Source of the DNA: Candidatus Nomurabacteria bacterium
GTDB taxonomy: Bacteria > Patescibacteriota > Minisyncoccia > Phycocordibacterales > UBA5272
Direction: 5' to 3'
NCBI GenBank assembly: GCA_040376695.1
Contig: JBEIQD010000003.1
Span: 1,789-65,788, forward strand
DNA length: 64,000 nt
Shown here in pieces: positions 56,440 to 61,684 of this stretch; the stretch's first letter is position 1, and the number at the start of each line of letters is the position of its first letter. The notes below the pieces were generated by a model. It saw only the letters and a program-made list of their open reading frames with translations, did not search any database and had not been told where the DNA came from. The translations under genes were made by a program, and so were the position numbers.

Positions 56440-56997
56440 ATGGCTAAATCAGCATTTGTGGGTGTGCAGGAAATTGAAAAGGGACTCTTCGAGAAACTTT
56501 CAAAGGAATTTGGATACAAGAATATCATGGCGTCACCACACCTTGTAAAGGTGAATGTTTCTGTGGCGACAGGTTCTGCTATGAAGCGTGATAAGAAGCG
56601 AAATGATCTCGTGGTTGATCGTCTTACAAAGATTACAGGACAGCGTCCAACAGTACGTAAGGCAAAGATGTCAGTTGCGTCATTCAAAACTCGTGAAGGG
56701 GATCCAATTGGAGTTGCGGTAACGCTTCGTGGAGCTCGTATGTTCGGATTCTTGGATAAGGTCCTTAACGTGTCACTTCCTCGTACAAAGGACTTCCGTG
56801 GTCTTAATCGTACATCAGTGGATGATATCGGTAACATGACGTTTGGTATCAAGGAACATACTATTTTCCCTGAAATTAAGGACGAAGAACTTAAGGATGT
56901 TTTCGGAATGGCTATCACGCTTGTAACAACAGCGAAGACAAAGGAAGAGGCGACTCGTTTCTTTGAACTTATTGGTATTCCGTTCAAGAAGATCTAG
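56440..56997 (+). CDS. rplE: 50S ribosomal protein L5
   Basis: 185 aa; canonical L5 (KNIMASPHLVKVNVSV...RGARMFGFLDKVLNVSLPR). Confidence 0.9.
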   Translation: MAKSAFVGVQEIEKGLFEKLSKEFGYKNIMASPHLVKVNVSVATGSAMKRDKKRNDLVVDRLTKITGQRPTVRKAKMSVASFKTREGDPIGVAVTLRGARMFGFLDKVLNVSLPRTKDFRGLNRTSVDDIGNMTFGIKEHTIFPEIKDEELKDVFGMAITLVTTAKTKEEATRFFELIGIPFKKI

Positions 56998-57022
56998 TTT
57001 TTTAAACTAAATTTAACTAATA

Positions 57023-57055
57023 AAAAGCAGCGTCTACGATGCTGCTTTTTATATT
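57023..57055 (+). terminator. intrinsic terminator after rplE; the ribosomal cluster ends here
   Basis: aaaagcagcgtc-tac-gatgctgctttt followed by tatattttg. Confidence 0.65.
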
Positions 57056-57169
57056 TTGTATCCCCATTTTATCCTTTCTTCATAGGCACTATTCTCGTAT
57101 ACTGAACGTATGCTTTCGGGTCATTTTTCCATGTTTTATAAACTCTTTTCTTTACACAAGAGGGCGGTA

Positions 57170-60100
57170 ATGATCTCTCTCTGTGCGGTAGTACTTTTCT
57201 CCCCAACCCTCACGTTCGCAGCCAACCCAGCCTCTCCATTTTCTCCATCAGATAACGTAGTGGACCCAAACTGTTTACCAACAGATTCTAACTGTTATGT
57301 GTCGATGACAAGTATGACCTTTGTTAACGCAACTTCTACACGACTGTTTGCAACGAATGCATCTTCAACAAACTTTTTCTCTACACTCATAAATGCAGTA
57401 ACTGCACTCTTCACTAACCTCACTACAACAGGAACAACAACTCTTGCTACAACTGGCGGAAGGGTGGGAGTTGGAACAACTACACCGAACCATACACTTG
57501 ATGTCCAGGGAAATATTGGTCTTGCTTCTTCAGGCTACATTAACTTTGGTTCAGTAGACAGTACATCAGGATACGGATTCCGCGACAATGCTGGTGCAAT
57601 TGAATACAAGAACTCAAACGGAGGCTGGACATCATTCGCCTCAGCTGGTGCAGGAGGAGGACAGCTCCTTGCTGTGTACTCAACCTCAACTGTAGGAACA
57701 AACATTACCGTTAACTTCAATGGTTCTGCTAACTCTTCACCGTCATACTCAGGAGGTGTTCTTACGCTCCCCTCAAACGCATCTCACATCGTTGTTGAAA
57801 CATGGGGAGCGGGTGGTGGAGGAGGAGGGTCAAACGGCGGCGCAACAGGAGGGACTGGAGGGGCTAGTTGTTTCGGAACGAACGCAACAGCTTGTACGAG
57901 TCCTATTATAAGCGCAACAGGAGGGACTGGAGGAACCTCTCAAGGGGGAGGAAGTGTTGCTGGAACAGGAACAGGGGGTGATATTAATCTAACTGGTGGG
58001 ACGAGTGCAGGGCTCACAACTGTTGGAGGTGGTTCAATTAATTACTCTGCAGGAGGAGCAGGAGGATCTGCTCCTCTTGGAGGGGGTGGGGGAGGAAGTA
58101 CTTACACCTCATCTGGAGCAACAGGGGCAAGATACGGTGGAGGTGGAGGGGGAGGGGGAATCTATGGAAGTACCAGCTCTTGTACTGCAGGAGGGGGTGG
58201 TGCAGGAGGAGGATACGCAAGAAAGTTGGTCACTAATCCATCAGGAACATATTATTACACCATTGGTGCTGGTGGAGCTGGAACTGTTGCGGGAAGCGCG
58301 TGTGGAGTGGGAAGTCAATATGGCGGAGGCGATGGTGGCTCAGGAGGAATCACTATCTCCATCTATACCTCAGGAGTATCTAATGGTTCTATTGGAAGTG
58401 GTCTCACAGGGTACATTCCGTACTACGGTTCTACAGGAACTAACCTTTCTGCTACTTCTTCAATCTTTCTTTCAACAACAGGGAATGTCGGTATTGGAAC
58501 AAGTACACCACTTTCAAAACTCTCAGTACAAGGAGACTTTTTCTTAGAAGGGTCTAATAGATATTTAAATTTCGGAAACGCAACAGGAACTCCGGGATAC
58601 GGATTCCGTGACAACGCAGGGGTACTAGAATTCAAAAATGCTTCTGGCTCTTGGACAAGCTTTTCAACTTCCACAGCTTTAGGTTCTGCTGGCCCTTCTT
58701 TTTCTGTTAATAAAGGGGGAACCAGTCAAACAGTTCCAGGAGGGAACACTACTTTACTCACATGGTCAACAGAAGTGTTTGATACCAACAATAATTTTGC
58801 TTCAAACAGGTTTACTCCAACAGTTGCAGGTAAGTATATTTTTAATCTGAATGTGCGTTGTAATGGAACAGGATGTTACGCGCATATTTACCAAAACGGG
58901 ATTCAGGTGTCGCAAACAGGTACAGGAACTGGAGGTTCTGATACGGAAATAGTAAGTACTTCCATTCTTCTTGATATGAATGGCACCACTGATTACGTAG
59001 AAGCTTATGGATATAATACCTCAACCACTATTAGTGGAAATGCATCTCAAACCTTCTTCACTGGCGCACTCATTGCTCCAGTAAATGCCACGGCAGGTGG
59101 TTGGCAAAATGATAGTACTTCATCGTTCCTGGCTGACTCCACTGATTTTGTTGGAATTGGAACTTCTAGTCCTACAGCTAAACTATCAATCCAAGGAACA
59201 GCAGGCTTCAATCCATTCATGGTTGCTTCTTCAACAGGAGCTTCACTCTTCTCGATTCTTCAGAACGGTAATATTGGAATTGGAACAAGTACACCATCGT
59301 CTAAATTAGATATTTGGGGCAATCTTACAGTAGGTACTTCATCTACTCCATTAATTTTTGCAAATACAGCAACAGGAAATGTGGGGATTGGAACAGCGAA
59401 CCCTGAATATAAACTAACTGTTGTTGCTCCAGCATCAAATTGGGGTATTGCTATAAATCCAGACAATCCAAGTAGCGGAAAACAGTACGGTTTGTTGGCT
59501 CGTGGGACATTGTATTCCGGGTACTTTAACGGCCCAGGTTTTATAGATCAAAGTGCTTGGACATACGGCTCGGACCGTCGCCTGAAGGAAAATATTTCAT
59601 ATTTTGAAAATGGACTAGATACTATTATGCGTCTTAAGCCTGCTGCGTATGACTACATATCAGGAACGAAAAGTAACCTCGGATTCATTGCTCAGGATGT
59701 ACAGGAAGTTATCCCAGAAGCTGTAACAATAACTGATCCAACAACAGGAATGCTTGGACTTAAAACTGATTTTATTATTCCATATCTTGTTAATGCAGTT
59801 CAGAATATGAATTCCGTCTTTAACGCAAGTAATGCGTTAAATGCTTCTTCAACTATCTTCTCGTATTATCAGGGAACAACTACTCCTGCAATCACTGTGG
59901 GGGCTACAGGTAATGTCGCTATCGCAACAAGTTCATCCCCGTATACTTTAACTGTTGGTAACTCTCTTATCAGTGGTGTTATCGCTCGCTTCCAAAATGC
60001 TACAGGGTACTGTGATATCAATCCAACAACAACATCACTTACCTGTTCTTCAGACGAGCGACTTAAGAAAAATATCCTCTCACTTGACGCAACATCTACG

Positions 60101-60622
60101 TTCGACAAGTTCATCCAACTTAATCCCGTAACATATAACTGGATTGGAGAAACGTCTACTTCTTCAACCTCAACTCATGCAGGTTTCATAGCTCAACAAG
60201 TAGAAACTCTGTTCCCAGATCTTGTTGCAACGGACGAACAGGGAATGAAGTCTGTTTCATACACTGGGTTTATTCCGTATATTGTTGAATCTATAAAGAG
60301 TCTTGCTAGAGATGTGAAGGCTCTTACCTTAAAAGTTGCATCATTTGCGAATCTAGTAGAAACAGATAAAGTTAAAAGTAAAAGTATTTGTCTTGAAAAC
60401 AATGGAGCGGAGACATGTATTAGTAAAGAAAAACTAGATGCTATTCTCCTCCTTTTAGGAGAAACAGCTGCAAATCAAGATCAAAACATCACACCTCCAG
60501 ACACATCAACCACTACGCCAGATATTGCAACTTCAACCGATCCAGTAGCGTCTTCAACTCCAGAAATAACACCCACCGAAGAAATTGAAGGGGGCACTAA
60601 CTCAGAAACAGAAACAAACTAA
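57170..60622 (+). CDS. giant secreted phage-tail-fibre-like protein with repeat modules, a glycine-rich tract and two tandem peptidase-S74 (intramolecular chaperone, CIMCD) domains
   Basis: SD gaggg 5 nt before the ATG at 57170, then signal peptide MISLCAVVLFSPTLTFA. Repeated about 60-aa modules (GVGTTTPNHTLDVQGN...GYGFRDNAGAIEYKNSNGGWTSF, twice) and several GIGTSTP..KL.V.G fibre repeats. Gly-rich region at 57800-58350. Two S74-like domains: GSDRRLKENISYFENG...GFIAQDVQEVIPEAV (59570-59815) and SSDERLKKNILSLDA...GFIAQQVETLFPDLV (60050-60300). Thr/Pro/Glu-rich tail. Confidence 0.7.
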   Translation: MISLCAVVLFSPTLTFAANPASPFSPSDNVVDPNCLPTDSNCYVSMTSMTFVNATSTRLFATNASSTNFFSTLINAVTALFTNLTTTGTTTLATTGGRVGVGTTTPNHTLDVQGNIGLASSGYINFGSVDSTSGYGFRDNAGAIEYKNSNGGWTSFASAGAGGGQLLAVYSTSTVGTNITVNFNGSANSSPSYSGGVLTLPSNASHIVVETWGAGGGGGGSNGGATGGTGGASCFGTNATACTSPIISATGGTGGTSQGGGSVAGTGTGGDINLTGGTSAGLTTVGGGSINYSAGGAGGSAPLGGGGGGSTYTSSGATGARYGGGGGGGGIYGSTSSCTAGGGGAGGGYARKLVTNPSGTYYYTIGAGGAGTVAGSACGVGSQYGGGDGGSGGITISIYTSGVSNGSIGSGLTGYIPYYGSTGTNLSATSSIFLSTTGNVGIGTSTPLSKLSVQGDFFLEGSNRYLNFGNATGTPGYGFRDNAGVLEFKNASGSWTSFSTSTALGSAGPSFSVNKGGTSQTVPGGNTTLLTWSTEVFDTNNNFASNRFTPTVAGKYIFNLNVRCNGTGCYAHIYQNGIQVSQTGTGTGGSDTEIVSTSILLDMNGTTDYVEAYGYNTSTTISGNASQTFFTGALIAPVNATAGGWQNDSTSSFLADSTDFVGIGTSSPTAKLSIQGTAGFNPFMVASSTGASLFSILQNGNIGIGTSTPSSKLDIWGNLTVGTSSTPLIFANTATGNVGIGTANPEYKLTVVAPASNWGIAINPDNPSSGKQYGLLARGTLYSGYFNGPGFIDQSAWTYGSDRRLKENISYFENGLDTIMRLKPAAYDYISGTKSNLGFIAQDVQEVIPEAVTITDPTTGMLGLKTDFIIPYLVNAVQNMNSVFNASNALNASSTIFSYYQGTTTPAITVGATGNVAIATSSSPYTLTVGNSLISGVIARFQNATGYCDINPTTTSLTCSSDERLKKNILSLDATSTFDKFIQLNPVTYNWIGETSTSSTSTHAGFIAQQVETLFPDLVATDEQGMKSVSYTGFIPYIVESIKSLARDVKALTLKVASFANLVETDKVKSKSICLENNGAETCISKEKLDAILLLLGETAANQDQNITPPDTSTTTPDIATSTDPVASSTPEITPTEEIEGGTNSETETN

Positions 60623-60625
60623 TTC

Positions 60626-61684
60626 GTGAAATCTTTATCTTTTCGAAAAATAATAGGAACTATCGGACTTGTTGCATGTTCCACAATTTCTTTTGCCGTG
60701 GCATCTGAAACTTCAGGAGCAATACTTTCAGGTTCGCAGTACACAAAGGTGTGTCATGACAGTGCATGTTCAACGTATGGAACGTTAAATTTTTTACCAA
60801 CAGTTACTGCAACAACTACTGCTATCAGAATCACTGATACTGCTATTACAGGATATGTGTGGGGAAATGAAACTGGATGGATTAATTTTGCGCCAACTGG
60901 GGCAGGGGTCACGGTGGATGCAGCAACGGGACTTGTGTACGGAACAGCTTGGTCTCAAGCAGGAGGATGGATTAATTTTCGCCCATCTAATTCTGGAACT
61001 ATCGTAAGCGGCATACCTATCGGTGTTTCCATTACACCTGCGGGAGAGTTCTATGGGTATGCATGGCTAGGCGGAGTATACGGTGGATGGATTAAATTTG
61101 ATTGTTCTTCGGCGGATACATGTGTGAAAACGGATTATAGAACTACTTCGTACAGATCTGCTACCTACGTGTACCTTGCCCCTTCCTATTTTACTCCTAC
61201 TGAAAATACTCCAGTAAAGGAAGAGGTTCCTACGCCTGTAACGATAGGCACATCTTCTCCTAGTACTGAAGTTGTTCCTGTTGAGGAAACCTCAACCTCT
61301 GTTCCTCTACCTGTAGTTATACCTTCAACTCCAGAAATTATTGATACTCCAACAGAACCAAGTTCAGTTGAACCTGTTTTCATGGGCGGTGGCAGCATAT
61401 TTTCCTCATGGGGTGGTGTAAGGGAAATTATGAGACCATCGTTCCTTGGATTTTTTGAAACACCAACACCGCTTTCTTTAGGTCTTAGTGTGAGCGCAGA
61501 ATCTTTGGGGTCTACAATTAGATCTGCGTTCCAGAATTTTAAATTAGAATTTAAGGTAATCTCGCTAGACAATATTTTCAATAAGGATAAAGACAGTAGT
61601 GAAATATATAATTTCAAAACTCACAATATTTGGCCAACAGTTAAATCGGCACTTGTGAGCGTCATTAATCTTTTTAAGAACTAG
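60626..61684 (+). CDS. secreted protein with three GWINF/GWIKF repeats and a Thr/Pro/Glu-rich linker
   Basis: Signal peptide MKSLSFRKIIGTIGLVACSTISFAVA. Repeats ...NETGWINFAPTGAG..., ...QAGGWINFRPSNSG..., ...VYGGWIKFDCSS... Starts 4 nt after the fibre gene stop. Confidence 0.5.
   Translation: MKSLSFRKIIGTIGLVACSTISFAVASETSGAILSGSQYTKVCHDSACSTYGTLNFLPTVTATTTAIRITDTAITGYVWGNETGWINFAPTGAGVTVDAATGLVYGTAWSQAGGWINFRPSNSGTIVSGIPIGVSITPAGEFYGYAWLGGVYGGWIKFDCSSADTCVKTDYRTTSYRSATYVYLAPSYFTPTENTPVKEEVPTPVTIGTSSPSTEVVPVEETSTSVPLPVVIPSTPEIIDTPTEPSSVEPVFMGGGSIFSSWGGVREIMRPSFLGFFETPTPLSLGLSVSAESLGSTIRSAFQNFKLEFKVISLDNIFNKDKDSSEIYNFKTHNIWPTVKSALVSVINLFKN

Follow-up and report, generated by a model that had tools for sequence, protein, structure and literature searches.

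The S74 domain (Pfam PF13884, Peptidase_S74), also called the intramolecular chaperone (ICA) domain, is known from textbooks as a single, disposable folding nucleus at the C-terminus of trimeric fibres. The S74 domains of K1F, T5 and MyRF trimerise, template the triple beta-helix upstream of them, and cut the chain after a Ser with the use of a Lys. What, then, is the role of this domain when it occurs twice in the same polypeptide? This question is raised by an open reading frame (ORF) of 1170 aa (57110–60622, longest-ORF start) in a 64,000-nucleotide stretch of DNA from a Candidatus Nomurabacteria bacterium (GenBank assembly GCA_040376695.1, contig JBEIQD010000003.1, positions 1,789–65,788). 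The whole stretch is referred to as the window hereafter, and the fibre gene with its parts, the hairpin before it and the gene right after it lie on its plus strand. The ORF encodes a long fibre protein with two intact S74 domains, each of which has the Ser-Lys dyad and the ICA fold; its gene stands in a cellular context, and the two-unit layout recurs in other proteins. The explanation that we consider the best, and to which we give about an even chance of being right as a whole, is that the protein is a secreted trimeric surface fibre of a candidate phyla radiation (CPR) bacterium, in which two chaperones work in relay and both of them cleave.

Two S74 units with conserved dyads in one fibre protein

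The fibre ORF was matched twice by PF13884 (116.8 bits combined). When the two segments were scanned separately, unit 1 scored 62.9 bits (E = 3.4e-17) and unit 2 scored 63.0 bits (E = 3.3e-17), the gathering cut-off of the family being 22 bits. Together with their helices, unit 1 occupies 59567–59818 (aa 820–903) and unit 2 occupies 60047–60364 (aa 980–1085). The former carries the motif GSDRRLKENISYF (SDRRLK), with Ser821 at nt 59570–59572 and Lys826 at nt 59585–59587; the latter carries SSDERLKKNILSL (SDERLK), with Ser981 at nt 60050–60052 and Lys986 at nt 60065–60067. Ser821 and Ser981 lie 160 aa from each other, and GFIAQ comes after both motifs, at aa 858–862 and 1025–1029, respectively. 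These results confirm the preliminary description of this DNA, in which two such units, about 160 aa apart and each with GFIAQ, had been placed at 59560–60310, a span that covers both Pfam cores. It had also set beforehand a check against PF13884 and the Ser-Lys dyad, and in this check both segments score and both dyads are present. A six-frame scan of the whole window gave no S74 unit besides these two.

The catalytic residues were compared in an alignment of 26 S74 units, which includes both units of the query and units of homologues. The Ser and the Lys of S-D-x-x-x-K are invariant there, and the Asp and the Gln of G-F-I-A-Q are nearly so. Both units can also be aligned with the SDRRIK motif of the long-tail-fibre chaperone of phage S16 (6f45). 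The close clade of the fibre comprises six members from independent assemblies, namely, P0002 to P0006 and the window protein itself, of which P0001 is an identical copy in the database, and two units with the Ser-Lys dyad are found in all six. In P0004 and P0006, unit 1 shares only about 50% identity with unit 1 of the window protein, yet the dyad is kept, together with Asp822.

The two units are separated by a segment of about 75 aa (59819–60046, aa 904–979). It consists, in order, of an S/T/N-rich linker, a single turn of the beta-helix with its capping-loop motif (GNVAIATSSSPYTLTV), and ARFQNATGYCDINPTTTSLTC, which carries two Cys residues immediately upstream of the second catalytic Ser.

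An AlphaFold2 model of aa 817–1085 was computed as a monomer from an alignment of 26 two-unit modules, in which the Ser and the Lys are likewise invariant. The mean predicted local distance difference test (pLDDT) value was 77.4, and the values per ten-residue block were 80–93 in both units; a model of aa 772–1104 from the single sequence reached a pLDDT of 36 and was discarded. The order of the helices and strands is identical in the two units. A difference is seen in the terminal helix, which is modelled with 14 residues (aa 890–903) in unit 1 versus 34 residues (aa 1051–1084) in unit 2. The top matches in the PDB, obtained with Foldseek, were the ICA domain of MyRF (7dc3; E = 6.7e-5, template modelling (TM) score of 0.70 on the target) and the chaperones 3gw6 (K1F) and 3gud. 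The ICA fold, in which a beta-rich part is followed by a C-terminal helix, is present in both units by these two analyses, the helix of unit 1 being short. Because both dyads are kept in the six clade members and both units are predicted with confidence to fold as ICA domains, we judge both units to be intact and neither to be decayed. The idea that one of them is a decayed copy, considered in the preliminary description, is not supported.

Multi-S74 proteins elsewhere and the origin of the tandem

To what extent is this arrangement peculiar to the window? A search of 1.84 billion cluster representatives with a profile of the S74 unit gave 263,087 S74 proteins. The best 150 of them all have two to five matched stretches. 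In a re-analysis, 133 of 149 proteins were found to contain two or more complete units, and 129 to contain the S-x4-K motif in at least two units. These counts come from a top-scoring list and are a lower bound, corresponding to at least 0.05% of the S74 clusters. Judged from these sequences, the tandem or multi-S74 architecture is rare but recurrent, and is not unique to the query. The preliminary description had presented the architecture as not known to have been described. This part stands, in that literature searches on tandem, two or multiple S74 domains found no paper describing such an architecture, and the arrangement is apparently new to the literature as a variant of the S74-terminated cellular fibre; the implied uniqueness does not stand against these cluster representatives.

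In the multi-S74 proteins of this list, which is ranked by score, the Ser and the Lys are kept in 155 of the 158 internal units and in 130 of the 138 last units. Thirty-three pairs with a spacing of 135–175 aa (about 150 aa) can be aligned with the query over the whole module. They share one layout: unit 1, a short helix, an S/T-rich linker, a single turn of the form GNVGIGTxxP...L.V, unit 2, and a long helix. In a subset of these pairs (P0069, P0070, P0083, P0091 and P0098), the two-Cys segment before the second Ser is also present. The gene contexts that were sampled are cellular: the P0076 gene adjoins the genes of LpxK and a heptosyltransferase, and those of P0069 and P0068 adjoin the genes of Obg and GatB, as does that of the clade member P0006.

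Several observations on individual proteins can be added. P0068 (L018 6001–22422, GCA_964541515.1) is a protein of 5473 aa with five S74 units, at aa 1489, 2652, 3740, 4927 and 5063. Four of them recur at intervals of about 1100–1190 aa, as though four fibres had been joined end to end in the chain, and the final two make up a tandem resembling that of the window. Its gene lies between those of Obg and GatB on one side and those of GAPDH and transketolase on the other. Three different multi-S74 fibre genes (in L003, in L018 and on the P0069 contig) are found near Obg and GatB, and this vicinity may be a preferred locus of such genes in these lineages. P0099 (L017 1242–2315), a protein of 357 aa, has a phage Mtd_N domain as well as two S74 units, and the gene next to its own encodes more than 2600 aa; this protein may be a case of tandem S74 borne by a phage.

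When the tandem region and two short tandem proteins were compared by tblastn with 50,697 phage records, two-piece matches spanning about 95–245 aa, mostly about 100–190 aa, were obtained. These matches, which were not inspected individually, are consistent with one S74 domain being met by both query units, and they speak neither for nor against tandem S74 in cultured phages. A fold search against BFVD gave many single-unit matches, with TM scores on the query of at most 0.46, and a few short viral proteins with long alignments of high root-mean-square deviation. We also considered whether the capping-loop motif belongs to the repeating S74 unit across families. This was rejected: the motif occurs within the 90 aa upstream of 15% of the S74 units, as compared with 21.5% of the background windows. 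Because it is not enriched ahead of the units, the motif is regarded as a general feature of the stalk.

As for the origin of the tandem, units 1 and 2 of the query are only 33% identical to each other, and unit 2 is 43–57% identical to the second units of P0070, P0069, P0080, P0091, P0083 and P0098. The closest unit is the unit's own partner in only 5 of 40 units. A recent duplication in place is ruled out by the low identity between the units and the greater nearness of unit 2 to the second units of other proteins. Fusion of two adjacent complete genes is likewise ruled out, there being no signal-peptide-like stretch between the units and the ORF being intact in the six independent assemblies. 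The clade itself is mosaic: aa 86–470 and the block of aa 917–1037 show 82–100% identity among its members, and unit 1 and the tail have been swapped. Because the units are 33% identical, second units group together and the clade is mosaic, the tandem is judged to be an old or recombined module. The mosaicism also extends to the knob region (aa 474–700, 58530–59200), which P0004 and P0005 lack through a clean deletion and for which P0006 has an unrelated segment instead (21–32% identity, with a flanking stalk that is 80–100% identical).

Layout and chromosomal setting of the fibre gene

The start of the ORF at 57110 has no ribosome-binding site, and the ATG at 57170 (Met21) is preceded by AAGAGGG, a good Shine-Dalgarno sequence. 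The database copy P0001, 100% identical to the window protein, has 1150 aa. Because this length and the upstream AAGAGGG agree, the true start is likely to be the ATG at 57170, which gives a protein of 1150 aa. The N-terminus (57110–57223) is hydrophobic and, on inspection of the sequence, signal-peptide-like (..AVMISLCAVVLFSPTLTFA/ANP). It is succeeded by a first stretch of stalk with capping-loop motifs and then by a glycine-rich region at 57665–58369 (aa 186–420); Gly_rich_2 (PF21722) was matched in relatives of the fibre and not in the query protein itself. Further downstream, a C1q/TNF-like jelly-roll domain was matched in Pfam at 58754–59074 (aa 549–655), with 25.6 bits when the region was scanned alone and 23.3 bits in the whole protein, the cut-off being 23.7 bits. 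This region also has weak matches to cerebellin and collagen X, and the domain is probably a ligand-binding knob.

The main beta-helix stalk (59144–59434) contains three capping-loop motifs, VGIGTxxPxxKLxV, at aa 681, 722 and 758. With the further copies at aa 119, 460 and 936, there are six in the fibre protein. Through this motif the stalk can be aligned with PDB 8ojn, that is, Bd3182(632-922) (phmmer, E = 0.0065). An internal repeat, GYGFRDNAG(A/V)(I/L)E(Y/F)KN..G.WTSF, was also found, at aa 154–186 (57569–57667) and aa 496–518 (58595–58663), and both of its copies sit about 35 aa downstream of a capping-loop motif. The repeat points to the duplication of a larger stalk module, the copies of which flank the glycine-rich region.

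About 105 residues lie beyond unit 2. They comprise a two-Cys motif, ICLENNGAETCISKEKLDAILLLL, at 60389–60469 (aa 1094–1120), of the form C-x(3-10)-C-[IV]-[TS]..L..LL, and an acidic, T/P/S/E-rich low-complexity tail at 60470–60619, recognised by inspection. After aa 1085, neither an LPXTG-type motif nor a hydrophobic stretch long enough to span a membrane was seen on inspection. The Cys motif has no match among the Pfam families. In the form LC-x(3-10)-C-[IV]-[TS]-x-x-QL-x-x-LL, it is present in 32 of the 228 fibre proteins collected, among them P0026, P0039, P0054 and P0063, in which no S74 unit was detected, and it may be an undescribed small module.

In the preliminary description, the protein was placed among phage tail fibres and spikes. 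The chromosomal setting contradicts this. Upstream of the gene are those of EF-G, EF-Tu and the ribosomal proteins S10 to L5, and L5 (rplE, 56440–56997) is followed directly by a strong terminator-like hairpin (57020–57052; a stem of 15 pairs, 5 of them G-C, and then a T tract) and the fibre gene. The hairpin is predicted to set the fibre gene apart from the ribosomal operon. The rest of the window carries genes of UvrD, a Mg-chelatase-type (ChlI family) ATPase, RecJ, a PolyA_pol/CCA-type nucleotidyltransferase, a ComEC-type competence protein, RNase Y and NusA, and no phage genes lie near the fibre gene. Matches to PHROG families were confined to the S74 and beta-helix parts of the fibre (tail-fibre families) and to the peptidoglycan-binding domain of a neighbour; among the eight ORFs tested, there was no PHROG structural match beyond those of the fibre. 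The nearest genomes are the groundwater metagenome-assembled genome (MAG) JAHFMX01 and Patescibacteria UBA6201. In JAHFMX01 (L002), the fibre gene is located at the same place after rplE and is followed by the same two genes. The homologues are named Candidatus Kaiserbacteria, Paceibacterota, Parcubacteria, Moranbacteria and Patescibacteria. Because of the ribosomal operon upstream, the housekeeping genes across the window, the synteny and the Patescibacteria-named relatives, the fibre gene is assigned to the chromosome of a Patescibacteria (CPR) bacterium and not to a phage.

A gene for a protein of 352 aa (60626–61684) begins 4 nt past the fibre stop codon, and in L002 the conserved counterpart overlaps the fibre gene by 4 nt. 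Because of this spacing in the two genomes, the two genes are probably co-expressed. The protein, which has no match in Pfam, NCBIfam or PHROG, has a signal-peptide-like N-terminus, three G-W-I-x-F repeats (GWINFAPTG, GWINFRPSN and GWIKFDCS) and a P/T/S/E-rich middle. Further downstream are a PG_binding_1 protein and a DUF2177 membrane protein. It was also found that the S10/spc operon ends after rplE (break at 56440–57110): the usual S14, S8 and L6 are not in the remaining 7 kb of the window, which are filled by surface and envelope genes. The same break after rplE is seen in the syntenic MAG JAHFMX01 (L002 9134–10001).

A possible folding relay, its alternatives and known systems

How might two S74 units be used by one fibre? 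A relay of folding is favoured because the first helix is systematically short and the second is long, a conserved beta-helix turn lies between them, and both dyads are kept. Folding would proceed from the C-terminus towards the N-terminus. Unit 2 would act first: its long helix, likely a coiled coil, would nucleate trimerisation and template the short beta-helix turn of aa 915–980. This mini-turn would bring together three copies of unit 1, each with its 14-residue helix, and unit 1 would then template the main beta-helix stalk. Each assembled trimer would form a Ser-Lys site, and the chain would be cut behind both Ser981 and Ser821. Three products would result: a mature fibre of about aa 39–821, a middle piece of 160 aa (822–981), and a C-terminal piece of 189 aa (982–1170). 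We infer the trimerisation, the order of events and the cleavage at both sites. Self-cleavage is expected of the query units because Bd3182 (PMC10769870) and the domains of K1F, T5 and MyRF act in this way. Sequential processing at the two S74 sites, releasing two products, as envisaged in the preliminary description, is plausible from the sequence.

Several points weigh against the relay. The short helix of unit 1 could mean that this unit is unable to assemble a competent active site, and the linker between the units is of low confidence in the monomer model. The strong conservation of aa 917–1037 may be derived from recent recombination and not from function. The list from which the conservation of the dyads was counted favours, by its ranking, well-preserved units, and the N-terminal hydrophobic stretch with its TFA/A site was judged by eye only.

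The helix of unit 1 is also the starting point of an alternative that we consider doubtful, in which cleavage is left to the terminal unit 2. Unit 1 would remain part of the mature protein (about aa 39–981) as a permanent node of trimerisation or a hinge, and no cut would be made at Ser821. Unit 1 lacks the long C-terminal helix typical of terminal units, and the high conservation of aa 917–981 is what would be expected of a part of the mature protein, for example, an exposed tip. However, Ser821, Lys826 and Asp822 have been kept despite divergence of the remainder of unit 1 to about 50% identity, and the dyad is kept in 98% of the internal units elsewhere, which a purely structural role would not need. 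A further case, which we consider quite improbable, is that modular recombination among fibre genes left the tandem behind as a neutral by-product, a junction scar with no specific role. The mosaic nature of the clade, with its knob deleted or replaced and its unit 1 and tail swapped, would fit such a scar, and the rarity with which a unit's own partner is its closest relative (5/40) is consistent with assembly by recombination. Yet six relatives from independent assemblies have retained the tandem, at identities as low as about 50%, the same layout occurs in 33 pairs, second units tend to group together, and both dyads are preserved.

A division of labour of another kind is conceivable, though we think it unlikely: unit 1 would be the working chaperone and protease of the fibre, and the later module (the mini-fibre, unit 2, the Cys motif and the acidic tail) would be separate, for example, a tether like that of MYRF, by which the nascent trimer would be kept at the envelope until a cut sets it free, or, more generally, the S74 units would be processing sites of a polyprotein between concatenated fibre modules. 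The five S74 units of P0068, four of them about 1100–1190 aa apart in a gene among housekeeping genes, speak for the polyprotein version. Unit 1 and the knob have been exchanged among relatives, in contrast to the C-terminal block, which is conserved as a cassette, and MYRF is a precedent of an ICA domain that frees an N-terminal trimer. On the other hand, neither a transmembrane segment nor a wall-anchor motif follows unit 2, and the inter-unit segment of about 75 aa, with its single beta-helix turn, is too small to be a fibre of its own. That the protein is a tail fibre of a phage or prophage we regard as hardly credible. Besides the Pfam S74 match, its strongest family matches are PHROG tail-fibre families, reached through the S74 and beta-helix parts, and tblastn gives hundreds of phage fibres; nevertheless, EF-G, EF-Tu and the S10-to-L5 genes lie upstream, a putatively secreted protein of unknown family, PG_binding_1 and DUF2177 lie downstream, housekeeping genes extend across the window, no other PHROG structural match occurs in the eight ORFs, and the synteny is kept in a second genome.

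Beyond this locus, the S74 domain occurs here in an ordered pair and elsewhere in runs of up to five, its internal copies carrying the catalytic residues, in cellular surface fibres of uncultured bacteria of the episymbiotic type. From this pattern, fibres may be assembled stepwise or as polyproteins, a mode that has so far gone unstudied. We tentatively propose, as a possibility with more against it than for it, that multi-S74 proteins represent a distinct conserved device of CPR and other bacteria for the extracellular folding and cutting of concatenated trimeric fibre modules, acting as a relay of cleaving chaperones and, in the giant proteins, as a means of polyprotein processing. In the present protein, this would mean two ordered cuts and three trimeric products, the 160-aa middle piece having a role of its own. 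By analogy with the adhesins of Bdellovibrio, such proteins may be used by Patescibacteria to contact other cells.

The closest described family is that of the mosaic adhesive trimer (MAT) fibres of Bdellovibrio bacteriovorus, which are signal-peptide-bearing trimeric adhesins with mosaic tips (Caulton et al. 2024, PMC10769870; PDB 8OJN, 8ONB, 8ONC). An S74 domain with SDxxxK terminates 13 of the 21 MAT fibres, and Bd3182 was found by gel electrophoresis (SDS-PAGE) to cleave itself at the Ser of this motif, the cleavage being blocked in the Ser-to-Ala mutant (PMC10769870). The query shares with this family the chromosomal gene, the long fibre with a capping-loop beta-helix stalk, the S74 unit with SDxxxK, the mosaic composition, and the swappable knob or tip domains, including those of the TNF/C1q type; the knob swapping in its clade resembles the tip and knob swapping reported for MAT fibres. 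Its trimeric state and its signal peptide are predicted. The differences are as follows. MAT fibres end in a single S74 domain or a non-S74 tip, whereas the query has two S74 units and about 105 residues beyond the second; its C1q-like knob is located in the middle of the fibre and not at the tip; and its host is a Patescibacteria bacterium and not a predatory proteobacterium. Its capping-loop motif has one residue more between V-G and P than the MAT consensus, V-G-x-x-x-x-P-x-x-x-L (PMC10769870). MAT fibres also have a conserved beta-rich N-terminal domain of about 130 aa after the signal peptide (PMC10769870). A BLASTP comparison of the query with the Bacteriovorax protein P0061 gave similarity confined to the S74 and stalk parts.

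The chaperone domains of phages, such as the C-terminal intramolecular chaperone domain (CIMCD) of K1F endosialidase (3GW6), 3GUD, the L-shaped tail fibre pb1 of T5 and gp37 of S16 (6F45), belong to the same Pfam family and share the Ser-Lys motif and the fold. In those virion proteins, however, the domain is present as one terminal copy, whereas two copies are found here in a cellular protein that is predicted to be secreted. The best structural match of the query units is the ICA domain of MYRF (7DC3), a membrane-bound transcription factor of eukaryotes in which a single ICA domain is followed by a transmembrane helix; such a helix is absent after the ICA units of the query. The ICA domain of MYRF is internal, with hundreds of residues after it, and it still cleaves itself upon trimerisation, so that the N-terminal trimer is set free from its C-terminal anchor.

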